Positions 6,077 to 33,950 of a stretch of DNA of 35,014 bases are shown piece by piece. The notes below the pieces were generated by a model. It did no database searches and was not told the DNA's origin. It saw only the letters and a program-made list of their open reading frames with translations. The DNA is from Chloroflexota bacterium (lineage in GTDB: Bacteria; Chloroflexota; Anaerolineae; J036; Brachytrichaceae). Positions within the stretch are counted from its first letter, which is position 1, and each line of letters begins with the position of its first letter. The stretch spans positions 1 through 35,014 of the forward strand of contig JANMVQ010000124.1 in NCBI GenBank assembly GCA_031392845.1, read 5' to 3'. Made by a program: the position numbers and the translations under genes.

Positions 6077-6103
6077 TTGCATTTGCATTTGCATTTGCAT
6101 TTG
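6077..6103. repeat. Hexanucleotide tandem repeat (TTGCAT)4 followed by TTG, in the intergenic region upstream of the GT-C-like membrane protein gene
   Basis: TTGCATTTGCATTTGCATTTGCATTTG lies 66 nt upstream of ATG 6169. Confidence 0.9.
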
Positions 6104-6168: not shown

Positions 6169-8094
6169 ATGGTCTCATCAACCCCTTACAAACTAGCCAT
6201 ACGGCGCGAACAGCCGATCGATAGCACATGGGACTGGGCTCCCGTTTCTAGCCTGCTGACACTCATTGCATCAGCGGGCATTTTGCTGCTTTCTTTATCC
6301 TATTCGGCGGGTCGCATAGACTCATCGTGGTCCGACACGGTGTTTTGGGCAGGCCTAGTGACCCTGATTGCCCCATTGGCATTCCGACTGATGGCCAGTC
6401 ATATGAGCCGTCAAGAAGGTGCGGCCATCGTGCTGATTGCCGCGCTTGGGTTCTATTTGGTCTCATACTTGCGCAGCCCATTGGCCGTGGTGCAATTCGA
6501 CGAATTTTTGCACTGGCGCACTGCCAACGATATGCTGCGTAGCGGTCGCTTGTTTGAACCGAATCCGATATTGCCGATTTCGCCTTTGTATCCAGGTCTG
6601 GAGATTGCCACCACAGCCTTGGTGAATCTGACCGGTTTGGATATTTTTCATGCTGGGGTGTTGTTGGTGGGCGCGGCACGGGTGTTGCTGGCATTGGGGT
6701 TGTTTAATCTGTTAATGCATATCACGCATTCGGCCAAAGTGTCGGTGGCGGCGGCGTTGCTCTACATGGGCAACACCACATTTATGTATTTCGATGCTCA
6801 GTTTGGCTATGAGTCGCTGGCGCTGCCGGTGGCGATTTTTGTGGCGTGTGCGCTTGTCAATCGTGATGTGGCTCAAGATCCAAGCGTACGTACTGGTTGG
6901 ATTGTTGCAGCCGTTTTTGGCATGCTGGTAGTGGCGATCACCCATCATGTCACCTCGTTTTTGCTGATGCTGTTTTTGGTGGGCTGGAAATTAACTGGCC
7001 TGTTTCTGGTACGCGGCAAAGGGCGCAGGCTGGACATTCCGTGGATTGTCATTGGCTTGGCAATCATTGCCAATGTAGTCTGGATTTCGTTGATCTGGCA
7101 TGAGTTGTACGATTATTTCTTTGGCATTTTTGGCTCGGCCTACGAGCAGGTGCAAAAGATGGTGTCTAGTAGTGGCACAGGCGGACGGCGTGAGTTGTTC
7201 AAAGCGGCCGCTACCGGTGGTCGGACTGCCTCTATCCTTGAGCGTTTGGTGGGGTTGGGATCGGTAGGGCTGCTCATGTTGGGGTTACCGATTGGCTTAT
7301 GGGCCTATTGGCAGCGTTATCGCCGCAACGTGCTGGTGACGCTATTTGCGCTGGTGGCGCTGGGCTACCCGGTGACACTGGCGATGCGCTTTGGCGGTGA
7401 GAGCGCTTGGCAGATTGCCAATCGCTCCTCAGGCTTTTTGTACATCGCGCTGGGTTGTGTGGTTGGGCTGGGCCTGGTCGAGGCCACCCCGCCGCGTTGG
7501 TTGCGGGTGCCAAGCTGGCTACGATTGGATCGCATGATGTTGTCCGGCGCGCTTATCGTTGTTGTAGTGTTGGGCGGCATCATTGCGGGTTCATCACCCA
7601 CCACGCGCATTCCTGGCCCATATTTAGTGGCAGCTGAGGAACGCTCGTACGAATCGCAGGGCCGTTTCGCGGCTCTGTGGGCACGCGATTATCTCGGCCC
7701 GGGCAACCTGATGATTGCCGATCGTACTAATAGTCAGTTGATGCTGTCTTATGGTGAACAATATGTGCTGACCGAGAAACAAGGCGTGATCAAGTCTGGA
7801 ATTTTCTTGTCCAAGAAGCTGGAAGGTGAGAATCTACAATTGTTTGAAAATGGCGTGGTGCGCTATGTAGTTGTGGACCGGCGCATTGAAGGCAGCACCA
7901 CCCCGGTCTCCGGATACTTTTTTGAGCCATGGGAGCGACTCGTGGTCCCAGACGCCTATAGCGATAGCAGCAGCATTGATCCGCAATCACTAGACAAGTT
8001 CATCGATACCCCAGGCATTGGCCGTATTTTTGATGGTGGTGATTTGCAAATCTATGACGGTGGAGGGTTAGCCAATGCGCCAAAGCCACAGTGA
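6169..8094 (+). CDS. Large polytopic membrane protein, candidate GT-C-fold glycosyltransferase (polyprenol-phosphate-sugar dependent) or polymerase
   Basis: 641 aa. About 11-13 TM helices are followed by a ~190-aa soluble C-terminal domain. The loop after TM3 contains VVQFDEFLHW, which resembles the DE motif of the first extracytoplasmic loop of PMT/ArnT-type GT-C enzymes. The gene is co-clustered with a Dpm1-like GT2 and a flippase. Confidence 0.45.
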   Translation: MVSSTPYKLAIRREQPIDSTWDWAPVSSLLTLIASAGILLLSLSYSAGRIDSSWSDTVFWAGLVTLIAPLAFRLMASHMSRQEGAAIVLIAALGFYLVSYLRSPLAVVQFDEFLHWRTANDMLRSGRLFEPNPILPISPLYPGLEIATTALVNLTGLDIFHAGVLLVGAARVLLALGLFNLLMHITHSAKVSVAAALLYMGNTTFMYFDAQFGYESLALPVAIFVACALVNRDVAQDPSVRTGWIVAAVFGMLVVAITHHVTSFLLMLFLVGWKLTGLFLVRGKGRRLDIPWIVIGLAIIANVVWISLIWHELYDYFFGIFGSAYEQVQKMVSSSGTGGRRELFKAAATGGRTASILERLVGLGSVGLLMLGLPIGLWAYWQRYRRNVLVTLFALVALGYPVTLAMRFGGESAWQIANRSSGFLYIALGCVVGLGLVEATPPRWLRVPSWLRLDRMMLSGALIVVVVLGGIIAGSSPTTRIPGPYLVAAEERSYESQGRFAALWARDYLGPGNLMIADRTNSQLMLSYGEQYVLTEKQGVIKSGIFLSKKLEGENLQLFENGVVRYVVVDRRIEGSTTPVSGYFFEPWERLVVPDAYSDSSSIDPQSLDKFIDTPGIGRIFDGGDLQIYDGGGLANAPKPQ

Positions 8095-8922: not shown

Positions 8923-8965
8923 CATGACTCGTGGCTCATGACTCACGAGTCATGAGTCAAGACTC
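8923..8965. repeat. Palindromic element: 11-bp inverted repeat CATGACTCGTG/CACGAGTCATG enclosing the 20-bp palindrome TCATGACTCACGAGTCATGA, followed by GAGTCAAGACTC
   Basis: Read directly from the sequence. It lies 9-50 nt upstream of the start of the 1353-aa secreted protein gene. Confidence 0.8.
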
Positions 8966-8973
8966 CTGAAACT

Positions 8974-11900
8974 ATGAAAAACAAAGCTCTACATTATTTA
9001 CTCGGCTTGGGTCTGGTGCTAGGTGCATTGGGCATGCCATTGACGAGCACTACGCAGGCGGCTGTGTTTCAACTCACGCTTCCTCCGGGATTTGTGCGTG
9101 ATAACGTAATTTCCGGTCCCAACGCGTTTGGTGGCGGCGAAGTGCCAACCAGCATGGCGTGGGCACCGGATGGTCGATTGTTTATTGGCCTTAAATCCGG
9201 GCGGATTCGCATTTGGCAGAACGGCGCGTTTTTGGCCAACGACTTTATCGACTTGCGCGATGTCGTGTCTGATAACGTCGATCGAGGCTTGGAAGGCTTG
9301 GCTGTCCATCCAAATTTCCCGGCTCAGCCGTATGTATATGCCTACTATGTTCACGATCCGGTGGGATTGCCGGTGAACCAGCGTGACCAGGATGGCGCGC
9401 GTGTCAGCCGGATGGTGAAGCTAAAGGCAAATAGCACGACAGGCTACAACGAGGCCGTGCCGATTTCCGACCCGGAGCGCGAGGTGGTTTTGTTGGGCCA
9501 GAACAGTGTGCTGAGTGCCATTGGCAGTACCACCAGCTTTACAGCGGGTGAAAGCTGTTTCAACAAAACGGTTGGGGTGGTGGCCTATGCCGGCTACGTG
9601 CCGGATTGTTTGCCGCAGGATAGTTCTACTCACGCAGGCGGGGCGCTGGCTTTTGGCCCCGCTGGCAATTTGTTTGTGAGCATCGGCGATGGCGCGGGTT
9701 ATGGTACGGTGGATCCACGCGGCCTACGGGCCATCACCCTGAACAGCATCGCGGGCAAAGTGCTGCGGATTGATCCACTGACAGGTAATGGCGTAGCGGG
9801 CAATCCCAATTTCAACGTCGGTTCCCCGGGCAGTGATCTGTCCAAGATTTATAGCCGGGGCATGCGCAACCCGTTTCGTATTGCGGTGAATCCAGTAAAT
9901 GGGTTGCCGTATGTCGGCGATATCGGGGATGGCACATGGGAAGAGATTAACGCTGGGCCGGGCAATTATGGTTGGCCATGTTACGAGGGTGGCAATGCAG
10001 TGAGTTTGCCCCAGCCGGGTTATGCCAATGATCCCAGCACAAAACCCACCTGTGACGGGTTTAGCGCCGCTGCGGTGTTGCCCTCGATATACGCCTATCA
10101 GCATTATTTCCCCACTGGGTCTAGCAATAATTATTCAGAAGGGGCCATCATCGCGGGTGCTTTTTTCTCTGGGACGAACTATCCGGCTGAGTACGACAAG
10201 GCATTGTTCTTTACCGATTATGTGCATGATTGGATTCGTTATCTCAAGTTTGATAACAATTTGAATGTCACGGGTGTCTATACCTTTGCCAACGAGTTGC
10301 TACCGCAACCCAACAAAGGGCCAGTGCAACTGAGTGTCGGGCCGGATAACAATTTATACGTGTTGGTGTTCGACTGGACCGGCAACAGCTCATTGACCCG
10401 CATCCGCTATGTGGGTGGGAATAATAATCAACCTATCGCCAGCGCGCAGGCCATGCCGACCAATGGGCCGATCCCGCTGAATGTGCAGTTCACTGGCGAA
10501 GGATCCAGTGATCCTGACACGCAGGCCTTGACTTACGGCTGGGATCTGGGCAACGGCGAATTTACGACAACAGTTAACCCGGTTTACACGTATACCGTGG
10601 CGGGGGCCTATACCGTCACGCTGACCGTGACCGATACAGGTGGGCTGTCGGACAGTGCGCGTTTGTACGTCACGGCGGGCAACACCGCGCCCGTGGTGAC
10701 GATCACCACCCCGACCACGGCCACGACTTGGGCAGTAGGCGATGTGATCAATTACAGCGGCTCGGCCAGCGACGCAGAGGATGGTGCATTAGCAGGCACC
10801 AGTTTGAACTGGGAGATCGGCATCGTGCATGGCTCGCACAACCATCCGGCCATCCACACCAGCATTGGTGCAACCGGCAGCTTCACCGCACCAGATCACG
10901 GTAACAACGTTTACTTCGAGCTGTGTCTGACCGCGACAGATGCCGGCGGTCTAAAGACCCGCAAGTGCGTCAACAGCGATCCGAAGTTGGTGGCGATTCA
11001 ATTTAAGAGTGTGCCCAGCGCCCAGCAAATTGCCTTTGCCGGGGTGTATGGGGTCACGCCTTTTACCACGACCACCATTGTCAATTCGCAGCAAGCCATC
11101 GCGGCGCCCCTTAGCCAGAATGGTTTGAACTGGCAGAGTTGGTCGGATGGCAAGCCCAATAGTTACACGACGACAATCCCGGCGACCAACCAGATCTTGA
11201 CCGCGACCTATGTGGCAGCGCCTCCCGTAGCAGTGATTACGGCCACAGCAAGTTCGGCGGTTGCCCCGGCACTAGTCACGCTGGATGGCAGCGGCTCGAC
11301 CGCTAACGGCACCAATGCTGGCATTCAGACCTATCTGTGGAATTTCGGTGACGGCTATACCAGCACGTTGGTTACCCCGACCCATGTGTTTCCGAATGGC
11401 GGCGCGTATTCGGTGACATTGACAGTCACGAATTTCGTTAATCAGGCAGCGATGGCGACCCGTGTCATCAATTTACAAGTGCCCGCTACAAATGACACCC
11501 ACTTGCCACTGGGGCTGCAAGTGGCGGATATTGGTGCTGCTGTGATAAATGCGCCAGAGGCGTTGGGGAGTGGCAGCAACTACCAAAATAATCAATTAGT
11601 GACCTGCAGCCGCAATGCCGGTGATATTTACAACGAGAGCGATGGCCTGTTGCTGACCTACCGCAAGGTTTCGGGCGATAGCGAGATTATTGGCCGCCTG
11701 ATCGATGTCAGTCGCCGAGTGGGTCAATATGGCAACAAAGCTGGCGTGATGTTGCGCGAATCGTTGACGGCAGGAGCCAAGAGTGTGTGGATTGGCACAT
11801 CAGTCGTTTATGAAGGTGACCCAAATAGTCCGGATGCACGCTTTACTCAGCGTTATCACTGGCGCCCTCAGACCGATGGCATGTCGGATGGGGTGAATGT

Positions 11901-16120: not shown

Positions 16121-18739
16121 TCACTCCTGCCGCACCGCGCTGGAAATGGCGATTTTGCCTAGGCGCAGCATGGGGTATATCCCGGCCAGCAACGCCGAGA
16201 TGAGCGCTACCAGCATGGCTTGGGCAAAAGTTTGCCACTCTAGGTTCAGCCGAATTGTCCAGCCAAATGAGCGCAAATTGATGATGTAGACCAGAATCAC
16301 GGCCAGCAACCAGCCGGTGGGCATCGAGAATAGCCCGGCGGTGCCGCCCATCAACCCAGTTTCAAGCAAGGTCATGCGCCAGAGTTGGCGCAGGGTCATG
16401 CCGTTGGCGCGCAACATGCCCAGCTCGCGGGTGCGCTCGATCTGCAACGCCATCAGCGCGCTGAGCACGCCGATAAAGGCGACAACTGTGGCCAGTAAAT
16501 TCAACGCGCCGGTGATGGCAAAGGTGCGATCAAACACCTGCAGTGCAGCGCTGCGCAAATCCCCGTTGGCGTTGATCAATAGGTTTTTGCCGCTAAATTG
16601 CTTGCGCAGATCGGCGACGTTTACCGCGTTAGGCGTATTTAGATAGAGCGCAACCTGCGACACCTGTCGGTCGTTGAAATAGCGCTCATAGTTGTCGCGC
16701 CGCATCAAAATCAAGCCTTGGTCCGAGGCATAGTCGTAATAGACCGCCTGTACGGTGAAGGTGCGTTCGCCCTGATCTGTCCGGATCGTGATGCGATTAT
16801 TTTGTTGGGTGATATCGTGTCTATTGGCATACGGCTCGGACACCCACACCTCGTCTTGGCCGCGCATGGCTGCCCAAGCCCCATTTGGATCGCGCGTAGT
16901 CCATACAAAGGTCTTGGCCGGGCGCTCACGGTTGGAATCGATGGTGAGAAGGCGGGCGGTTGCGGAGTTAGTAAGGTTCGGAAGGTTCTGAACGTTAGGA
17001 ACCTTACCAACTTTCTCAACATTAGGAACTTCCCCGACTTCAACAGGCAACGAACGTAACAAGGTGACTTCGCTGACGTCGGGAAGGGCGCGGAATTGGG
17101 CGATGGTTTGTGGATCGATGGTGGCAACGTTGTCGTTGACGCCAGACCTAATTGGGGCGATATAGATATCGGCCAGCAACGAGGCCTCTAGCCAGTTTTC
17201 GACGGTGTTTCTAAAGCTGCCAATCATGCTTTGCAGGCCAATGATTACGCTGACCGCGATCATGAGCGAGGCAATCGCAATGCCGGTGCGCGAGATGGAA
17301 TTGACGACCGAGCGGGTGGACATACGCCCGATGACGCCGACGAAGCGATTCATGATCGGGGTGAGGGCATCCATCAAGTAGACAGTGCCCAATGGCGAAA
17401 TAATGGCCAGCCCAACGATGACACCAAAGATGCCACCCAGATTGACCACAAGTTGTTTGGTGAGCAGCAACATGCCTCCGCCAATCGCAAACATGACGAT
17501 GCCAACTAGCGCAATCTTGGGCAGAATTTTGCGCACGCGTTGCTCCACAGCGCTGCGTTTCAGAGCAGTAACCGGTGGGATGCTGGTCGCCTCATACGCG
17601 GGCGCCAGCGCCGCCAACAGCGCCGCGCCTACGCCCAGCACAAAGCCTTTGATCAGAGTGAATGGCGCAACTTCAATGTCTTGCACATTGACCACGTAAT
17701 ACAAATCGTTAATCGTCTGGGTGACCAAGCGCACCGAACCGCGCCCCAGCAATAGTCCCAGCCCAACTCCCAACACCCCGCCGATAGCGGCCAGAATCGC
17801 AGTCTCGGTCAAAATCAGTTGAAAGATTTCGCGTTGGGTCACGCCCAGACAGCGCAGCGTGCCGATCATGGGGCGGCGCTGCACCACCGAAAACATGATG
17901 GTGTTGTAGATTAGAAACATGCCCACAACCAGCGCCAACAGGCTCAGCGCGGTGAGATTTAGCTGAAACGCATCGGTCAGGCTTTCGACACTTTGGCTGC
18001 GCGCTTGGGGCTTGATGATTTGCGCACCCAGAGGCAACGTTTGTTGGATGCGTGCCAGCATGTCACGGCCTGCAGTGGTGCGCTCATCGGCGATCAGGTC
18101 GATATGGCTGAGCTGGCCGCGCATCTGGAAGAGCTGTTGCGCGGCAGCCACGTCCATGATGGCCAGACCGTCAAGCGCCCGACGGCTGTTGGCGTCGGCG
18201 GGTTGCAGGATGCCGATGATGCGCACGGTTTGGGTGCGCTCACCGACGCGTAGGGTGAATTTGCTACCGGGTTTGAGTTGGTAGCGCTCGGCAGTGGTTG
18301 CGCCAATCAAAACAGCGTCTGGCTGGGTCAAAAATTGGGTGAGATCGACGTTGCCGGCTGCTGCGACGTTGCCTTCGCCTAAATAGTTACGAAAAGGAAA
18401 GTCCGCGAAGACATCGATGCCCAAAATCTGTAACGGCTGCTGATCAAGTTCGAGTGCAGTGGCATACGCAGCAATGATTGGGGCAGCGTTTGTAATGCCT
18501 AGATCGACCTTGATTTGGCGATAAACCGTATCGCTGATCGTGGCGCCACTGCCGACGATTTGATGGGTGGCTCGCCCGGCCACTGTCTCGGTGCTTAGAT
18601 TAAACGCCCGCGCTGCGCTGACGTTGGCCAGATCGATGGCGATAACGACTGCCACGCCGAGCGCTACGCCAATGATGCACAAAATCGACTGCAAAGGACG
18701 CCGCAACAGATAGCGCAACCCCGTTTTTAACAGACTCAT
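16121..18739 (-). CDS. ABC transporter permease with duplicated FtsX-like 4-TM domains (MacB/YbbP-like)
   Basis: 872 aa. Two FtsX-type TM bundles are each preceded by a large extracytoplasmic domain. A low-complexity insert, EVGEVPNVEKVGKVPNVQNLPNLTNS, is encoded by the repeat at 16966-17046. Confidence 0.85.
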   Translation of the reverse strand: MSLLKTGLRYLLRRPLQSILCIIGVALGVAVVIAIDLANVSAARAFNLSTETVAGRATHQIVGSGATISDTVYRQIKVDLGITNAAPIIAAYATALELDQQPLQILGIDVFADFPFRNYLGEGNVAAAGNVDLTQFLTQPDAVLIGATTAERYQLKPGSKFTLRVGERTQTVRIIGILQPADANSRRALDGLAIMDVAAAQQLFQMRGQLSHIDLIADERTTAGRDMLARIQQTLPLGAQIIKPQARSQSVESLTDAFQLNLTALSLLALVVGMFLIYNTIMFSVVQRRPMIGTLRCLGVTQREIFQLILTETAILAAIGGVLGVGLGLLLGRGSVRLVTQTINDLYYVVNVQDIEVAPFTLIKGFVLGVGAALLAALAPAYEATSIPPVTALKRSAVEQRVRKILPKIALVGIVMFAIGGGMLLLTKQLVVNLGGIFGVIVGLAIISPLGTVYLMDALTPIMNRFVGVIGRMSTRSVVNSISRTGIAIASLMIAVSVIIGLQSMIGSFRNTVENWLEASLLADIYIAPIRSGVNDNVATIDPQTIAQFRALPDVSEVTLLRSLPVEVGEVPNVEKVGKVPNVQNLPNLTNSATARLLTIDSNRERPAKTFVWTTRDPNGAWAAMRGQDEVWVSEPYANRHDITQQNNRITIRTDQGERTFTVQAVYYDYASDQGLILMRRDNYERYFNDRQVSQVALYLNTPNAVNVADLRKQFSGKNLLINANGDLRSAALQVFDRTFAITGALNLLATVVAFIGVLSALMALQIERTRELGMLRANGMTLRQLWRMTLLETGLMGGTAGLFSMPTGWLLAVILVYIINLRSFGWTIRLNLEWQTFAQAMLVALISALLAGIYPMLRLGKIAISSAVRQE
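16966..17046. repeat. 9-bp-periodic palindromic repeat element inserted in-frame in the FtsX permease gene
   Basis: AAGGTTCGG AAGGTTCTG AACGTTAGG AACCTTACC AACTTTCTC AACATTAGG AACTTCCCC GACTTCAAC. It encodes ...VPNVEKVGKVPNVQNLPNLTNS... Confidence 0.7.
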
Positions 18740-18840
18740 ATGTAGTTGAGGTTAATGCGCATACATGAGCGCGGTGTGAATCGGTAACGATAACCTGCAA
18801 TTCCAAAATCAAATTTTATGTCTCACTCCAACCCATTTTA

Positions 18841-18935
18841 GACGCGGATTTTTCGGATTCACGCGGATAGAAAAGAAATCTTTAATCCGCGTTGATCCGT
18901 TTAATCCGCGTTCTGTTCTGTTCTGTTCTATGTTG
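18841..18935. repeat. Structured repeat element, copy 1: long imperfect hairpin built from four ACGCGGAT/ATCCGCGT motifs plus a (TCTGT)4 pyrimidine tail
   Basis: Left arm GACGCGGATTTTTCGGATTCACGCGGAT and right arm ATCCGCGTTGATCCGTTTAATCCGCGT are reverse complements with about 4 mismatches, separated by a 16-nt loop. TCTGTTCTGTTCTGTTCTATG follows. Confidence 0.7.
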
Positions 18936-18951
18936 TGTTGATATCAGAACG

Positions 18952-19830
18952 TCATTGCACGAGTAGCGCAAACTGGGCCAATGTCGTGTCGCCGTGGATG
19001 CGCACCCGATCCCAGGTGAACGCACCACTCAGGCGGTGGGTTTTGCCATAGGCAGTGGTGACTGCGCCGAGCATGTATTCAGACTTTAACACCCGAATTA
19101 CATCGTCGTCGTAGCGTCCGAACGGATAGCAGAAGAAGCGTGGGCGTTTGCCGGTGTAGGCCTCGATCGCCTCCAGTGGGCCGAGCGTTTCCCAGATCAG
19201 CTTGGGCAAATCGCGGTTGCGCAGGTCTATGTGAGTGCGTGAATGCGATTCGATGTTCATGCCTGCACGCGATATCTCCTGAATCTGGTCCCAATGCATG
19301 TAATCCGGATTTGCGCTGCTGGCGAAGTCAGTCACCACAAAAAATGTGCCTACCATGCCATATTTGCGCAACAATGGAAAGGCGTGCTCATAAGCGTCGC
19401 GGTGGCCATCATCAAAGGTCAGAATAATGGACTTGGGTGGCAAAGGTGCACCACTGCTCAGATTGGCGTGAAGGTCATACAAACTGATGGTCTTGTAGCC
19501 GTTATCTGAGAGATACTTCAACTGCGCCTCAAAATTTTCGGGTGAGACGGATAAATCACGCCGGATACGGTCAGCATTGGCTGGGGGTGTCGAGATATAG
19601 TGATACATCAGGATCGGCACTTGTGCGATTCGTAGCGGATCTGCCGTAGGCGTGAGGGGTACGGGTGTGGGTAGCGGACTGGCGGTGGGGGTGGGGCGAG
19701 CAGCTTGCGCTCGGCACGTCACCCCAGCGATCAAAACAATACTGCACAAACAAGTGATACGCACAAAACGTGCAAACTGGGTCACAATTTTGCGGAAATG
19801 GGGTTCGGAGTTGTATTCAGAAACGGGCAT
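18952..19830 (-). CDS. Polysaccharide deacetylase, CE4 / NodB-homology domain, secreted
   Basis: LTFDDGHRDAYE and ESHSRTHIDL are NodB motifs. The N-terminus is hydrophobic with a Pro/Thr-rich linker. The start is uncertain; an internal GTG is an alternative. Confidence 0.8.
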   Translation of the reverse strand: MPVSEYNSEPHFRKIVTQFARFVRITCLCSIVLIAGVTCRAQAARPTPTASPLPTPVPLTPTADPLRIAQVPILMYHYISTPPANADRIRRDLSVSPENFEAQLKYLSDNGYKTISLYDLHANLSSGAPLPPKSIILTFDDGHRDAYEHAFPLLRKYGMVGTFFVVTDFASSANPDYMHWDQIQEISRAGMNIESHSRTHIDLRNRDLPKLIWETLGPLEAIEAYTGKRPRFFCYPFGRYDDDVIRVLKSEYMLGAVTTAYGKTHRLSGAFTWDRVRIHGDTTLAQFALLVQ

Positions 19831-22657: not shown

Positions 22658-22676
22658 GTCATGACTCACGAGTCAT
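22658..22676. repeat. Second copy of the TCATGACTCACGAGTCAT palindrome (18 of 20 positions) with a GACTCAAGACT motif about 90 nt downstream
   Basis: GTCATGACTCACGAGTCAT lies 16 nt after the lipoprotein stop, between convergent genes. TGACTCAAGACTTA is at 22751-22764. Confidence 0.75.
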
Positions 22677-22797
22677 AAATCATAAGTCCGGCGAACGATA
22701 CGTTAAGACGAAATGAACAAGTGTATTGAACGTATCTCTTTCCGGACTTTTGACTCAAGACTTATGGCAATGAATCGTGACTAATGACTCTTGATCC

Positions 22798-24305: not shown

Positions 24306-25976
24306 ATGGCTGACGGACAAGTTATTTACTCAATGATGAAGGTGGGCAAAGTGGTTCCACCGAATAAGCAGATTCTGCGTGATATTACGCTGGGATTTTA
24401 TTACGGCGCCAAGATTGGTGTGTTGGGTTTGAACGGTGCAGGCAAGAGCACCTTGCTCAAAATCATGGCTGGGATCGATGACAATCATCTGGGCGACACC
24501 ACGCTCAGCAAGGGCTATGTACGGGGCATGCTGACGCAAGAACCTGCGCTGGACGATACCAAAACGGTCAAAGAAATTGTGCAAGAAGGTGTGCAACCAC
24601 TGGTCGATCTGCAAAATAAATATGATGAGATCAGCGCCAAGTTTGCCGAGCCGGATGCCGACTTTGACAAGCTGATGGAAGAGCAAGCCAAAGTGCAAGA
24701 AGAGATGGATAAGCACGACGTATGGACGTTGGACAGCCGCCTTGATCTGGCATTGGATGCGCTGCGCTGCCCGCCAGGCGATGCACTGGTGCAGCCTCTC
24801 TCTGGTGGAGAGCGCCGCCGGGTGGCGTTGTGCCGTCTGCTGTTGGCCGAGCCGGATATTTTGCTACTCGACGAGCCAACCAACCACTTGGACGCTGAAA
24901 GTGTGGCCTGGTTGGAACAGCATTTGCGCAACTACAAAGGCACCGTCATTGCGGTGACCCACGACCGCTACTTTCTGGACAACGTGGCGGGCTGGATTTT
25001 AGAGCTGGATCGTGGCTTTGGCATTCCTTATAAAGGCAATTACTCCGGCTGGCTGTCGCAAAAATCTGAGCGACTGCGCCAAGAAGAGAAGTCCGATGAC
25101 AAGCGTCAAAAGACACTGGATCGCGAACTGGAATGGATTCGTATGTCCCCCAAAGCGCGCCAGTCCAAGGGCAAGGCGCGCATTACCTCTTACGAAAAGC
25201 TGCTAGACCAAGAAGGTGAGAAGCGCCGTGAAGAACTGGAGATTTATATTCCGCCCGGCCCGCGCTTGGGCGATGTGGTGCTCGAAGCAAAAAATATCAG
25301 CAAAGGCTATGATGATCACCTGCTCTACGAGAACCTGAGCTTCACCGTGCCGCCCGGGGCGATTGTCGGTATCATCGGCCCCAACGGTGTGGGCAAGACC
25401 ACGCTGTTCCGAATGATCACCGGTCAGGAAAAGCCCGACACCGGCACATTCACGGTGGGCTCAACAGTCAAGCTGGGCTATGCCGATCAGAGCCGTACCC
25501 TCGACCCCGGCAAAAACGTATGGGAAGAAATTACCGGTGGCGATGACTTCATCACCATGGGTCAACGCCGCATGAATAGCCGCGCTTATGTGGCCAGCTT
25601 CAACTTTCTGGGTACGGATCAGCAGCAGAAAGTAGGTACGCTCTCAGGTGGGCAGCGCAACCGCGTGCATTTGGCCAAGACCTTACGCGAAGAGGCCAAC
25701 GTGTTGCTGTTGGACGAGCCGACTAATGACATCGATATCAACACCATGCGTGCGCTAGAAGAAGCGATTACTGAATTTGCCGGTACCGCCATGATCATCA
25801 GCCACGACCGTTGGTTTTTGGATCGTGTCTGTACCCACACATTGGCTTTCGAAGAAGATGGCAATGTGCGTTGGTTTGTCGGCACGGTCAGCGAATACGA
25901 AGAAGATCGCCGCAAGCGTCTGGGCAAGGACGCTGAGACCCCGCACCGGATGGTGCATCGTAAACTACAGAGATAG
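24306..25976 (+). CDS. ettA: Energy-dependent translational throttle protein EttA (ABC-F ATPase)
   Basis: The N-terminus VIYSMMKVGKVVPPNKQILRDITLGFYYGAKIGVLGLNGAGKSTLLKIMAGID is near-identical in pattern to E. coli EttA/YjjK. Two ABC cassettes are joined by a linker, with no TM domain. Confidence 0.9.
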   Translation: MADGQVIYSMMKVGKVVPPNKQILRDITLGFYYGAKIGVLGLNGAGKSTLLKIMAGIDDNHLGDTTLSKGYVRGMLTQEPALDDTKTVKEIVQEGVQPLVDLQNKYDEISAKFAEPDADFDKLMEEQAKVQEEMDKHDVWTLDSRLDLALDALRCPPGDALVQPLSGGERRRVALCRLLLAEPDILLLDEPTNHLDAESVAWLEQHLRNYKGTVIAVTHDRYFLDNVAGWILELDRGFGIPYKGNYSGWLSQKSERLRQEEKSDDKRQKTLDRELEWIRMSPKARQSKGKARITSYEKLLDQEGEKRREELEIYIPPGPRLGDVVLEAKNISKGYDDHLLYENLSFTVPPGAIVGIIGPNGVGKTTLFRMITGQEKPDTGTFTVGSTVKLGYADQSRTLDPGKNVWEEITGGDDFITMGQRRMNSRAYVASFNFLGTDQQQKVGTLSGGQRNRVHLAKTLREEANVLLLDEPTNDIDINTMRALEEAITEFAGTAMIISHDRWFLDRVCTHTLAFEEDGNVRWFVGTVSEYEEDRRKRLGKDAETPHRMVHRKLQR

Positions 25977-25985
25977 TAGAAAGTT

Positions 25986-26042
25986 AAAAGTGCAAAGTTG
26001 AAAGTGAGTGGCTTGTTTTTAACTTTCAACTTTGCACTTTTT
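25986..26042 (+). terminator. Hairpin with a 20-bp perfect AT-rich stem and T-run downstream of ettA (terminator or attenuator)
   Basis: AAAAGTGCAAAGTTGAAAGT - 16-nt loop - ACTTTCAACTTTGCACTTTT, followed by TT. The next ATG is 12 nt downstream. Confidence 0.55.
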
Positions 26043-26053
26043 ACTCATGAGAA

Positions 26054-26894: not shown

Positions 26895-29800
26895 TCAATC
26901 TTGCAAAATCGGCTGTAACCAACGCTCCGCTTCTTGCAGCGTCCAGCCTTTACGTTGTGAATAGTCTTTTAACTGATCACGCCCGATCTTGCCCACGCCA
27001 AAGTAGCGGGCTTGGGGATGGGCGAAGTACCAGCCACTGACGGACGCAGCAGGCAACATGGCGCAGCTCTCGGTCAACGTCATACCGATCTTTTCTTGCG
27101 CTTGTAACAGATCAAAGATCGTGCGCTTTTCAGTGTGATCTGGGCAGGCCGGGTAGCCCGGTGCTGGCCGAATGCCGCGATATTTCTCGGTGATTAAATC
27201 TGCGCTGCTTAGTTGCTCAGTCAACCCATAGCTCATGTCGTCGCGGGCGCGTTTGTGCAGATATTCAGCTCCGGCCTCGGCCAAGCGATCTGCTAGTGCC
27301 TCAACAAGGATCGCGCTGTAATCATCCCCAGCCTGTTTGTAACGCTCGACCATTTCCTTGGCCCCGTGAATGCCTACCGCAAACGCCCCGATGTAATCGA
27401 CAGTGCCGCTGTCTTTGGGGGCAATAAAATCCGCCAATGCCAGGTTCACTCTTACGGTTTGAAGGTTTGAAGGGTTTGGAAGGTTCGAAGGTTCAGAAAG
27501 TTTAGAACGTTCGGAACCTTCTGAACTTGACGAACCTTCCCAACCCCTCTTATTCATCTGTTGCCGCAGCGTATGGAAAGTGGCGCGCACTTGACTGCGG
27601 CTTTCATCGGCGTATACCTCGATATCGTCGCCGACGCTGTTGGCGGGGTAGAAACCGTAGATGGCTTTGGCGGCGAGTGTATTTGTCCCATTTGCTGATT
27701 GAGGGTTCGCAGTTTGACCCGGTTTGTGGGCGGCGACATGCGCGGTGGCGTTGGCTTGCACAAGGCGTTGCAGCATCGTCTGCGCATCCGCAAATAGCGC
27801 GCGTGCCTGTTCACCCACGACTGCATCATCAAGAATCTTCGGATAGCCACCCGCCAATTCCCACGCCTGAAAGAAGGGCGTCCAATCGATATAGTCGATC
27901 AGATCGCGTAAGGGCAAATCCTCGATCACCCGTGCGCCGACGAAGGATGGCTCGATAGCGTTCTCGCCACTCGATTCATCTGCGCTTAGGGCGTTAAAGC
28001 GGCGCTGACGGGCTTGCTCCAAACTTAGGAGCGGCTTGCGATCCGCGCGCTTGGCGAATTGCTCACGCAGATCGGATTGTTCGAGCGCATTCTTCTTGAC
28101 GAAGTCATCGTGCATTGCTTGGCTGAGCAAGCTGCCCACCACGCCAACCGCTCGGCTGGCATCCAGCACGTGCACCACTGGCTGCATGTAATTCGGCGCA
28201 ATCTTCAGCGCGGTATGAGCCTTGCTTGTTGTTGCGCCGCCAATCAGCAAGGGGATATTCATGCCTTCGCGGGCCATCTCTTTGGCCATGTGCGCCATCT
28301 CGTCCAGCGAGGGAGTGATCAGTCCACTCAAGCCAATCATGTCCGCACCTAACTCTTTGGCGGCTTTCAATATTTTGTCTGCTGGCACCATCACACCCAG
28401 ATCGATCACCTCGTAGTTATTGCAGCCCAGTACCACCCCGACGATGTTTTTGCCAATGTCATGCACATCGCCTTTGACCGTGGCGAGGACGATTTTGCCG
28501 GCGGAAGAAGACTGCTGGACGGCGGACGGCTCCAAGCTGGCCGCATCGCGCTCGGCCTGCATAAACGGTTCCAGCACCGCCACTGCGCGCTTCATCACCC
28601 GAGCGCTCTTGACCACCTGCGGCAAAAACATCTTGCCCGCGCCAAACAGATCGCCAACCACGCTCATGCCTTTCATCAGCGGCCCTTCGATTACATGCAA
28701 TGGACGACCATATTTCTGGCGCGCTTCTTCGACATCGACATCGATGAAATCGGTAATGCCTTTGACCAGCGCATGCTCCAACCTTTCCTCGATTGAGTTA
28801 TTCCGCCATTGTGCTACTTCTCTCTCGGTCAACCGTCGTCCGTTGTCCGTCGTCGGCTTAATCTCTTCCGCATAAGCCACCAACCGCTCGGTCGCATCCG
28901 GTCGCCGGTTCAACAGCACATCTTCTACACGTGTCAGTAGCGTTTTGTCGATCTCTTCGTAAACTTCCAGTTGCCCGGCATTCACAATGCCCATGTCTAG
29001 CCCGGCTCGAATGGCGTGATAGAGAAACGCACTGTGCATGGCCTCGCGCACCGGGTTGTTGCCACGAAACGAAAACGAGATGTTGCTCACCCCACCGCTG
29101 ACCTTTGCCCCCGGCAAATTTTGTTTGATCCAGCGGGTGGCCTCGATAAAGTTCAACGCATAGTTGTTGTGCTCTTCGATGCCGGTGCCCACGGTCAGAA
29201 TATTCGGGTCGAAGATGATGTCTTCCGGCGCAAACCCCACGTCGCTTACTAAAATATCATAGGCGCGTTTGCAGATGGCGATCTTGCGCTCGTAGGTGTC
29301 GGCCTGCCCGCTCTCGTCGAATGCCATCACTACTGTGCCTGCCCCGTGCCGCTTGATGATGGTGGCTTGCTCTTTGAACTTGGCCTCACCCTCTTTCAAG
29401 CTAATTGAATTGACGATGCACTTGCCCTGCACGCACTTCAGCCCAGCCTCGATCACCCCCCAGCGACTGCTGTCGATCATGACCGGCACTTTGGCGATAT
29501 CCGGCTCACTCATCGCCAAGTTCATGAAATGGGTCATGGCTTGTTCGCCGTCAATCAAACCTTCGTCAAAGTTCACATCGATAATATTGGCCCCATTCTC
29601 AATCTGTTGCTTTGCCACCCGCAGAGCTTCTTCGTACTGGCCCTCTTTAATCAGCTTGGCAAACCGGGGTGAGCCAGTCACGTTGGTGCGTTCGCCGATC
29701 ATCATGAATTGGGTGGCAGAGGGTTCGGAAGGTTTATAAGGTTGGGAAAGTTCAGAAGGTTCAGAACGTTGTGAACCTTCAGAACCTTCTAAACTTTCGG

Positions 29801-30884
29801 AACTTTCCGAACCGATCGCCAATCGCTCGAGCCCACTAAAGTAAGTCTTATGCACCGGCTTGGCTGGGGTGCGCACGCGGCCGGCATGCTGCACGACGTC
29901 GGCCAATTGGCTGATGTGTTCTGGGCCGGTGCCACAACAACCGCCCACAATATTGACCCAGCCATTTTGGGCAAACTCGCCAACCTGATCAGCAAACTGA
30001 TCGGGGGTCATATCGTAGCCGCCAAAGGCATTTGGCAGCCCGGCGTTGGGGTAACACGAGGTGAACACCTGACTGAGCTGGTTCATCTCCTCCATATACG
30101 GGCGCATCTCGTTTGGCCCCAGCGCGCAATTAATGCCCATGCTGATGAGCGGAGCGCGATGGATCGAGGCCCAATACGCATCCACGGTTTGGCCGCTCAG
30201 GGTGCGTCCGCTCTGGTCGGTGATGGTCACACTGGCCATCACTGGAACCCGCCGTGCGCCATCGGCAAACAGCTTCTGAATTGCGTAGAGCGCCGCCTTT
30301 TGATTGAGCGTGTCAAATGTGGTCTCGGGCAACAAGATATCGACGCCGCCCTCCAGCAATGCCGCGGCCTGGTCGTAATAGGCTTGCATAACCTGATCGA
30401 ATGTCACCGCTCGAAAGCTGGGATCGTTCACATTGGGGCTGAGCGAGAGGGTGCGGTTCATCGGCCCCAATGCGCCGGCCACGTAGCGCGGCTTGCGCGG
30501 GTCGCGTTGAGTGAAATCATCGGCGGCCTTGCGTGCGATCTGCGCTGCCCTGATGTTCATCTCGCGGATCAGCGCCGGGTCGGTCATATCAAAATCGGCC
30601 ATACTGATGGCCTGCGCATTGAACGTGTTAGTCTCGAGGATGTCCGCTCCCGCCTCGAGATACTCGCGATGAATCGCCTCAATCATGTCGGGCTGCACCA
30701 GATTCAAGGTCTCGTTATTGTTTTTAAGATCAATATGCCAGTTCGCAAAGCGCTCGCCCCGATAAGTCGCCTCATCCGGTTTATAGCGTTGGATCATGGT
30801 GCCCATTGCCCCATCCAGAATCAAGATGCGCTGCTTGAGTAGATCCGTAATGGGTGGCTTGTTTGGTTGGGTAAATTCGCTCAT
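26895..30884 (-). CDS. metH: Cobalamin-dependent methionine synthase MetH with two low-complexity inter-domain insertions
   Basis: Full five-module architecture: Hcy-binding (ILDGAMGT...GGCCGT), pterin-binding, B12-binding ([10 protein letters not shown]), and the AdoMet-activation domain. 1329 aa compared with ~1230 aa for canonical MetH. The extra residues are encoded by the repeats at 27448-27540 and 29715-29815. Confidence 0.95.
27448..27540. repeat. 9-bp-periodic palindromic repeat element inserted in-frame in metH (linker between the B12-binding and AdoMet-activation domains)
   Basis: GGTTTGAA GGTTTGAA GGGTTTGGAA GGTTCGAA GGTTCAGAAA GTTTAGAAC GTTCGGAAC CTTCTGAAC TTGACGAAC CTTCC. It encodes [26 protein letters not shown]. 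Confidence 0.75.
29715..29815. repeat. 9-bp-periodic palindromic repeat element inserted in-frame in metH (linker between the Hcy-binding and pterin-binding domains)
   Basis: GGGTTCGGAA GGTTTATAA GGTTGGGAAA GTTCAGAA GGTTCAGAAC GTTGTGAAC CTTCAGAAC CTTCTAAAC TTTCGGAAC TTTCCGAAC. It encodes [32 protein letters not shown]. Confidence 0.75.
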
Positions 30885-31022
30885 TGCTATAGCCCTTCAG
30901 GTTGGAAAGTAGCAATATCACCCTCCTCGATCTCATAGACCGGGGAGGGCGATTCCAGAATCAAACCTGAACATCTATATATGCAATGATACCCAGAGTT
31001 ATGAGAGGAAAATGACTTTGTT

Positions 31023-33704: not shown

Positions 33705-33845
33705 GTTAGCAATCGCTGAAAAACAGTTACTACTCAGGCCATTTCTGATTCTTTTCCGCAAATCACGCGAATCAGCGCGAAAAAGATTAGCGAATATTCG
33801 TGTGATTCGCGGATTTCAATAGGTCTGAGTAGTTACGAAAAATAG

Positions 33846-33950
33846 GACGCGGAGTTTCAGGATGACAGGATCATTCAGGATAGTGACATCCCAAAAATCC
33901 TGTCATCCGGCAAATCCGCGTCTTATTCTTTGTCCTGTTCTTTATGGATA
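33846..33950. repeat. Structured repeat element, copy 2: hairpin GACGCGGAGTTTCAGGATGACAGGAT ... ATCCTGTCATCCGGCAAATCCGCGTC plus a CT-rich tail, in the 5' leader of the DRE-TIM gene
   Basis: The right arm and tail (CAAATCCGCGTCTTATTCTTTGTCCTGTTCTTTATGG) closely match copy 1 (TTAATCCGCGTTCTGTTCTGTTCTGTTCTATGTTG). The reverse complement of the right arm matches the left arm of copy 1. Confidence 0.65.

Follow-up and report, generated by a model that had tools for sequence, protein, structure and literature searches.

Inverted arrays of nine-nucleotide units in metH and other genes of a Chloroflexota bacterium: a probable family of dispersed, hairpin-forming repeats

Introduction

How does the gene of an essential enzyme come to contain two blocks of palindromic, low-complexity DNA that are translated with it? 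The question is raised by the 35,014-nt contig JANMVQ010000124.1 of Chloroflexota bacterium (assembly GCA_031392845.1), called the window below at its full length. Its metH gene for cobalamin-dependent methionine synthase is interrupted in frame by two imperfect palindromes, elements A and B, each made of tandem units of about 9 nt followed by units of the reverse-complement form. An initial annotation of this DNA had taken the two blocks for copies of a dispersed element that recalls the Rickettsia palindromic elements (RPEs) but is built differently, and had left it between self-propagation and slippage or recombination as the way in which they arose. Here we describe further copies of the same design in unrelated genes and in a spacer, and argue that A and B probably belong to a dispersed, non-autonomous family of hairpin-forming repeats.

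MetH homologues with 65–75% identity put the organism in Anaerolineae-class Chloroflexota, near Ca. Roseilinea/Thermoflexales (names as given in the sources), and the same species recurs in several metagenome assemblies of the European Nucleotide Archive (ENA). The sampled DNA of the species amounts to ~43 kb, and the element copy counts given here refer to it.

Results

Architecture of the nonamer palindromes

The host gene and its two elements are:
26895–30884, minus strand: metH, cobalamin-dependent methionine synthase, 1329 aa, defined by its open reading frame (ORF) and Pfam domains; five modules intact
29722–29813: element B, 92 nt, 5 + 5 units, CG axis at 29767–29768; residues 358–389, read in the GSE/RSE/PSE frame, in the linker from the homocysteine (Hcy) module to the pterin module
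27456–27545: element A, 90 nt, CG axis at 27508–27509; residues 1114–1143, in a loop inside the S-adenosylmethionine (AdoMet) activation domain

A full element has the form (GGTTCnGAA)n-CG-(TTCnGAACC)n and is an imperfect palindrome of ~75–95 nt about its CG axis. The periodic core is the self-complementary 7-mer TTCnGAA, with a 2-nt spacer that is GG on one side, CC on the opposite side and CG at the axis between them. This 7-mer recalls the eukaryotic heat-shock element, but the spacing differs, so that we judge the likeness to be coincidental. The two-unit pattern GGTTCNGAAGGTTCNGAA, with up to three mismatches, matches the window 25 times against 0.19 expected matches, and no shuffled sequence equalled that number. 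Tandem Repeats Finder reports period 9 in both blocks and period 8 in part of A. The arms of element B are 46 nt long and 78% complementary, with no loop between them, and those of element A are 34 nt long and 71% complementary; as single-stranded DNA the elements fold at about -24 kcal/mol (z = -5.25 for B and -4.24 for A). These figures bear out the initial description of two palindromic nonamer blocks in metH. Overall the arms are 71–83% complementary, and the arms of the one intergenic copy are unequal; the hairpins are decaying.

The consensus has six reading frames, of which four can never hold a stop codon and the remaining two do so only where n = T, as can be read directly from the sequence. 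Both metH blocks are in frame, as had been noted, but the proposal that this is due to the 9-nt periodicity does not apply to element A. One arm of A has decayed to 8- and 10-nt units (GGTTTGAA), and the frame accordingly drifts inside the element from GSE to PSN/LPN; the metH frame is kept across A because the total of 90 nt is a multiple of three.

Copies at unrelated loci

A third copy lies elsewhere in the window, in a transporter gene:
16121–18739, minus strand: gene for an FtsX/MacB-like ABC-transporter permease, 872 aa, host of element C; ORF, with Pfam FtsX and MacB_PCD in two stretches each
16966–17040: element C, CG axis at 16993–16994; residues ~567–591 of the permease

Element C is translated as VPN VEK VGK VPN VQN LPN L, in a different frame from the metH copies. 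Same-species contigs that continue beyond the end of the window contain a fourth copy within leuS, read as KVHKVENVQNVQNITNIQNFAN and situated between the conserved motifs NWVGKSEGAEVEF and IHVYTTRPDT of leucyl-tRNA synthetase (LeuRS), and a fifth copy in the spacer upstream of leuS (contigs L127–L129). The family is therefore present at no fewer than five non-homologous loci in ~43 kb, namely two in metH and one each in the permease gene, leuS and the spacer upstream of leuS; the spacer copy is intergenic and the other four are intragenic. All of them have the same architecture, so the metH copies are not alone.

The four in-frame copies have a common GAA-CG-TT axis and, when anchored at the centre, are 81–88% identical to one idealised consensus and 68–77% identical to each other. 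Followed from the axis outward, elements A and B show the same succession of unit variants, namely GGTTCnGAA, AGTTCAGAA and GGTTGGGAA. By contrast, the reading frames vary from copy to copy: B is read as GSE/PSE, A is mixed, and C and the leuS copy are read as VxN/LxN. A profile of the element peptides gave one match of 57 aa with E = 0.33, and the 32-aa peptide of element B, compared with 1.84 billion representative proteins, matched only an unrelated repeat protein. Because the copies are read in different frames, have no peptide in common and found no relatives in the protein searches, conservation sits in the DNA and not in the peptide. The peptide searches argue against a protein-level family; they provide no census of copies.

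Nucleotide searches were directed at the wider distribution of the family. A scan of GTDB representative genomes with the 25-nt core common to the three window copies returned one match, in Actinoplanes, at about chance level, which indicates that the exact core is absent from the GTDB species representatives, a set that does not include the source genome. In a metagenome scan whose pattern was too loose, plain (GAACGTTnn)n tandem repeats were matched and none of 120 loci was a clear family member. A scan of viral contigs gave no match, and neither an Rfam match nor a tRNA gene is present in the window. Within the full-text literature searched, elements of this kind were not found described for Chloroflexota.

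Placement in the MetH protein

Pfam recognizes S-methyl_trans (residues 21–331), Pterin_bind (397–635), B12-binding_2 (699–772), B12-binding (796–889) and, in two stretches, Met_synt_B12. In the MetH alignment no variation is seen at the Zn-ligand cysteines (C253/C316/C317) or in the D806-x-H808 motif. We considered whether metH could be a pseudogene and rejected this, as the gene is intact with all catalytic motifs. An assembly artefact was likewise rejected: each of the two elements is identical, up to a few base changes, across at least eight independent NCBI/ENA assemblies.

Both blocks had been assigned to inter-module linkers. For element B this is correct, as it lies between the end of S-methyl_trans (residue 331) and the start of Pterin_bind (residue 397), which is the Hcy/pterin linker. 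Element A, on the other hand, is found ~170 residues into the activation module Met_synt_B12, which Pfam splits in two, and not in the linker between the B12 and AdoMet modules. When the protein is aligned with 3BUL and 1MSK, fragments of the E. coli enzyme, the alignments halt at query residue 1115 and restart at 1147, corresponding to E. coli residues ~1038–1040.

AlphaFold models of the two MetH halves have a mean predicted local distance difference test score (pLDDT) of 86–87. Residues 1120–1140, within element A, are the one stretch of at least three residues that scores <50 in the C-terminal model. In the N-terminal model residues 361–390 (element B) score <50, as do residues 1–4, a short loop at 564–567 and residues 678–690, the latter at insertion site 2 and at the end of the model. 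Both element sites are thus low-confidence surface loops between confidently modelled domains, in agreement with the expectation that the inserts occupy permissive positions of an essential enzyme.

MetH proteins of this clade are 1244–1351 aa long, compared with 1220–1235 aa for canonical MetH. They have five hypervariable sites, at about residues 357–390, 677–692, 783–795, 1049–1070 and 1112–1146 in window numbering. The two blocks had been held responsible for a protein ~100 aa longer than usual. The excess is indeed ~94 residues, but A and B supply only ~59 of them, and the remainder comes from three further clade-specific insertion sites. One of these contains a tract of a different unit family:
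28833–28854: MetH site 2, (CCGTCGT)x3 heptamers, residues ~677–692, from Tandem Repeats Finder

Many of the clade's MetH inserts are translated palindromes of other families, for example DDGRRTTDD...SSVVNRQSS and IENAKLKIE...SQFSILNS. This was seen in the MetH alignment with relatives P0002–P0040 and in contigs L124 (3329–7348) and L125 (713–4702). At site B, the MetH gene of contig L124 has a GC-rich 100-nt hairpin of -90 kcal/mol. MetH site 4 (27660–27720, residues ~1053–1070) contains CAAAC-type short repeats after the clade-conserved AHKPG motif; contig L126 carries (CAAACnT)x4 there, apparently a direct array with no palindrome.

Variation between strains and relatives

All same-species strains keep A and B, and element B differs among them by one or two changes at most. 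Strain L132 has element C with exactly one additional CCTTCCGAA unit. In permease orthologues at 83–86% identity the element C array is present with other unit numbers, and at ≤72% identity it is absent. The intergenic copy upstream of leuS is ~110 nt long in L127, and one of its arms is hugely expanded in L128 and L129, resulting in scaffold gaps. In L002, whose metH is 92% identical at the DNA level, element A is orthologous and has one extra 9-nt unit per arm. Slippage is shown, then, for the change in unit number, which proceeds in 9-nt steps between strains.

The occupants of a site change as well. Site B of L002 contains an unrelated 7-mer array, (ACGACGG)n...(TCGTCAA)n, in place of the nonamer element, and site 2 of L002 contains a near-perfect (GAGATTG)3-GGCC-(CAATCTC)4 where the window has (ACGACGG)x3. 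The protein P0130 (96% aa identity) combines A and B of the window type with site 2 of the L002 type; the GAGATTG array at site 2 is also found in P0002. Sites B and 2 are therefore occupied by different families in genomes that are 92–96% identical. Conversely, a single family can occupy different sites: GAGATTG/CAATCTC arrays are found at three different MetH sites in three genomes, and an 8-nt-unit version of the window family (GGTTGGAA) is present at site 3 of the L124 MetH (75% identical) and in a second gene on the same contig. In the MetH alignment the same peptide encoded by unrelated DNA was not seen; close orthologues have the same DNA with other unit numbers, and distant ones have different inserts.

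LeuRS has a second strain-variable site, at residues ~448–465, which reads RGTTDPSTPSAGQADLQTTDEW or SPTTADRQTTTDAW (L127 1676–4465 vs L128 1365–4130) and resembles the ACGACGG-type family.

Other hairpins and arrays in and around the window

Hairpins with arms of at least 18 nt number 11 in the window and 2.1 in shuffled sequence, a fivefold excess. Six of the 11 are in the intergenic 10% of the window, and several are inverted arrays of 7–9-nt units. The elements other than the nonamer family are:
30892–30977: hairpin element of 86 nt, located 8 nt upstream of the ATG of metH, with direct CTATA flanks; its ends resemble GGTTGGAA units
33721–33836: 116-nt element like a MITE (miniature inverted-repeat transposable element), in which the terminal inverted repeats are AGTTACTACTCAGGCC/GGTCTGAGTAGTTAC and the interior has CGCGAATCA units; absent from strain L003
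22668–22783: intergenic hairpin with arms of ATGACTC-type heptamers
25975–26045: hairpin of AAAGTnn heptamers, 96% complementary, just past the stop codon of the ABC-F gene
8923–8968: intergenic inverted TCATGAG heptamers
18842–18911: intergenic inverted nnnCGGATT nonamers
6077–6103: intergenic (TTGCAT)x4.5

The first two of these sister elements have terminal inverted repeats and short flanking direct repeats. The 86-nt site is filled in the window and in L002 and empty in L003 (98–99% identical), where a single CTATA is found. Since the end of this element supplies GAAGGG before the ATG, it may alter the initiation of metH translation. The 116-nt element adjoins another hairpin, of 100 nt, at 33835–33933. 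The heptamer hairpin at 22668–22783 has been lost from L002 by deletion between ATGACTC repeats (~9286–9292), and the L003 version differs in its loop and contains additional units. In L130 (~7860–7960) the 16-nt loop of the hairpin next to the ABC-F gene is reverse-complemented, and ~100 nt are deleted, including the last 26 ABC-F codons. Scaffold gaps of L133 coincide with several array sites, so such repeats break short-read assemblies.

Other strains (L003 15833–16935, L128, L132) have a PIN_3 + HicB-like toxin-antitoxin pair between the genes for a polysaccharide deacetylase and the FtsX-like permease. At this position (18787–18967) the window has only 180 nt with a hairpin.

Numerous unrelated contigs from soil and sediment (loci L012, L040/L104, L077, L084, L116, L079, L037, L085 and L110) contain inverted nonamer arrays of the form (GATCGTTCG)n...(CGAACGATC)n, some of which sit in long ORFs. 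As these contigs carry the inverted tandem-array design with another unit, the design is not confined to the present lineage.

Discussion

Origin of the elements

We consider it likely, on balance, that A and B represent a dispersed family of non-autonomous, hairpin-forming repeats that spreads between loci, is filtered by selection, changes by slippage, and is eventually decayed or replaced. Of the two origins initially suggested, slippage accounts for unit number, and spread between loci is what we infer from the axis, the consensus and the unit variants that are common to non-homologous loci. Copies would reach new loci by a trans-acting or replication-associated process that uses the hairpin. 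Selection would remove insertions unless they are in frame, free of stop codons and located in tolerant loops or linkers; copies would be seen in intact essential genes because only such insertions are spared. After insertion, the arrays would be altered by replication slippage and point mutation, and later deleted or overwritten. A benefit to the host would not be needed: the Gly/Ser/Glu/Pro or Val/Asn/Leu peptides could be passengers that form floppy extensions of loops. The presence of further copies in the permease gene, leuS and the spacer, together with the low pLDDT of both MetH inserts, supports the original suggestion of a dispersed DNA element at permissive positions.

Several observations weigh against this interpretation. 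Neither a transposase nor a RAYT (REP-associated tyrosine transposase) nor any other candidate mobilising gene was found in the 35-kb window or the flanks examined. No consistent target-site duplication was found among the four in-frame copies: A is bordered by TAAGAG in the window, and in L002 one of its sides reads TAAAAG, but nothing comparable is seen at B, C or the leuS copy. A clean pair of filled and empty sites between close strains was found for the sister elements only and not for the nonamer family. Finally, the copies were counted within ~43 kb of the species, and a genome-wide number in the hundreds is an extrapolation from that count.

These same negative results, the lack of a detected transposase and of a consistent target-site duplication, would be expected if each element had arisen where it now stands. 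In such a scheme a seed is expanded by slippage and the inverted arm is produced by intrastrand template switching, yielding a quasi-palindrome, and the likeness of the copies reflects a shared mutational bias. Slippage is clearly active here, as seen from the unit changes in L002 and L132 and the large one-armed expansion upstream of leuS. Hairpins here are sites of rearrangement, as in L130 with its reverse-complemented loop and deletion, and the many coexisting unit families of the same design suggest a general array-making process. However, independent seeds in metH, leuS, the ftsX-like gene and the spacer should yield differing units, whereas the same 9-mer, CG axis and consensus recur at five loci, A and B share ordered unit variants, and the GAGATTG/CAATCTC family likewise appears in three genomes at three different MetH sites. 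With one unit and one axis found again and again at loci that are unrelated, we regard a purely local origin as fairly unlikely.

A more far-reaching proposal is that the window family belongs to a novel class, for which the name "inverted tandem-array" elements could serve. To form the arms, a 7–9-nt template would be copied over and over before the strand folds back, and the elements would be installed by a clade-specific, hairpin-directed enzyme distinct from classical transposases. Such a system would time and again rewrite the same permissive loops of essential proteins in Roseilinea/Thermoflexales-like Chloroflexota and thereby generate linker and loop diversity. We offer this as speculation and think it unlikely.

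The elements might instead be maintained for a selected function. They could serve the protein as flexible linkers whose length can be tuned, or they could act in the mRNA as hairpins, making ribosomes pause at domain boundaries or stabilising the transcript. Element B is exactly at a domain boundary, the RNA folds of the site regions are strong (-50 and -48 kcal/mol), steps of 9 nt permit length changes without frameshift, and A and B are kept by all same-species strains. Yet A, C and the leuS copy lie inside domains, away from boundaries; close relatives have unrelated sequence at the same sites, differing in length as well, and no such inserts are present in canonical MetH. Moreover, the peptide depends on the frame in which a copy is read, the arms are unequal and in decay, and the same family also occupies a spacer. 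Such a function therefore seems very improbable as the explanation of the family.

It is just as improbable that the MetH inserts are simply old alleles exchanged between lineages by homologous recombination through conserved flanks, as the patchiness of site-2 variants across the clade (RLESGDS..SQ, DKETGRQGDKE and the window PTTDNGRR types) and the combination in P0130 of window-type A and B with an L002-like site 2 might suggest, for this leaves unexplained both the origin of each insert and the presence of the same DNA family in non-homologous genes and a spacer. Recombinational shuffling of alleles at the MetH sites may contribute to the observed variation but cannot replace spread between loci.

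Comparison with known systems

The family of dispersed repeats favoured here has a close counterpart in the RPEs, dispersed palindromes inside housekeeping genes at fold-compatible positions that have been interpreted as selfish DNA filtered by selection (PMC10969869; see also PMC1779305). In both systems, dispersed palindromes of ~100 nt are found in frame in unrelated housekeeping genes and also between genes; the in-frame copies here are those in metH (two), the ftsX-like gene and leuS. The construction is different, as initially surmised. RPEs are unique sequences of ~100–150 bp, with one conserved peptide encoded per family, whereas the present elements consist of 8–9-nt units and their reverse complement, are read in several frames, vary in unit number by strain, and exchange places with other families at the same sites. 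The host, in addition, belongs to a free-living Chloroflexota lineage. As the nonamer family has no fixed frame and no conserved peptide, it does not qualify as an RPE family. Given the Chloroflexota host and the 9-nt units, sequence homology to the RPE-1 to RPE-10 consensus sequences would not be expected either.

The elements also resemble MITEs, and behave like those situated within genes (PMC10969869); they are small inverted-repeat palindromes (75–95 nt) with no coding capacity of their own, present in multiple copies (at least five) and differing in insertions between relatives (element C, site B, L124). They are not classed as MITEs here because neither a consistent target-site duplication nor a parent insertion sequence was found in the DNA sampled. 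With MITEs and with REP elements (repetitive extragenic palindromes) and their hairpin-forming REPIN derivatives they have in common that they are small, non-coding, hairpin-forming, present in many copies, and variably present between strains. In contrast to both, their arms are tandem arrays and not unique terminal repeats. By definition, REP and REPIN elements lie outside genes, whereas the family described here has four of its five copies within genes, and no Y1-transposase/RAYT-like gene was found in the ~43 kb sampled.

Genome-wide families of tandem 7–9-nt units are known from filamentous bacteria, as the short tandemly repeated repetitive (STRR) sequences of cyanobacteria and as the heptamers of Beggiatoaceae, and heptamer arrays are also present in the spacers of the window and at MetH sites of its relatives. 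The nonamer family has a period of 9, or of 8 in part of A, with its arrays placed in inverted orientation around an axis and most of its copies located within genes. The TAACTGA repeats of Beggiatoaceae, by comparison, form direct arrays that are almost all intergenic, with a single inverted set reported (PMC4679880). A simple coding minisatellite would match the variable unit number but not the inverted second arm or the occurrence of the same axis at no fewer than five loci.

PARCEL repeats are dyad-symmetric units of 75 nt (25 residues) that encode amphipathic sequence and make up whole surface proteins of unknown function (PMC2996958). Like the present elements, they are intragenic, show dyad symmetry at the DNA level and vary in number. 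The units here are of 9 nt (3 residues), however, and form hydrophilic low-complexity inserts of ~30 residues, with pLDDT <50, in conserved enzymes. Some organelle hairpin elements invade coding regions, but we know of none with a tandem-unit construction. The palindromic repeats of Volvox organelles are interpreted, in the title and abstract of PMC2670323, as selfish DNA that spread within the genome; they differ from the present family in belonging to organelle genomes and to other sequence families.

Significance

In-frame selfish palindromes in essential genes are best documented in Rickettsia, an obligate intracellular parasite, and are usually explained there by a relaxation of selection. 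That a free-living member of the Chloroflexota shows the same outcome suggests that hairpin DNA colonises protein loops more generally. What distinguishes the present case is the construction from tandem 7–9-nt units and their reverse complement, the coexistence of several families, and their fast turnover at fixed hot spots. The insertion sites provide a natural map of permissive positions in MetH (five sites), LeuRS and a MacB-type permease, and the array sites explain breaks in short-read assemblies of these organisms. The family also offers a concrete system for asking how hairpin repeats move without a visible transposase.

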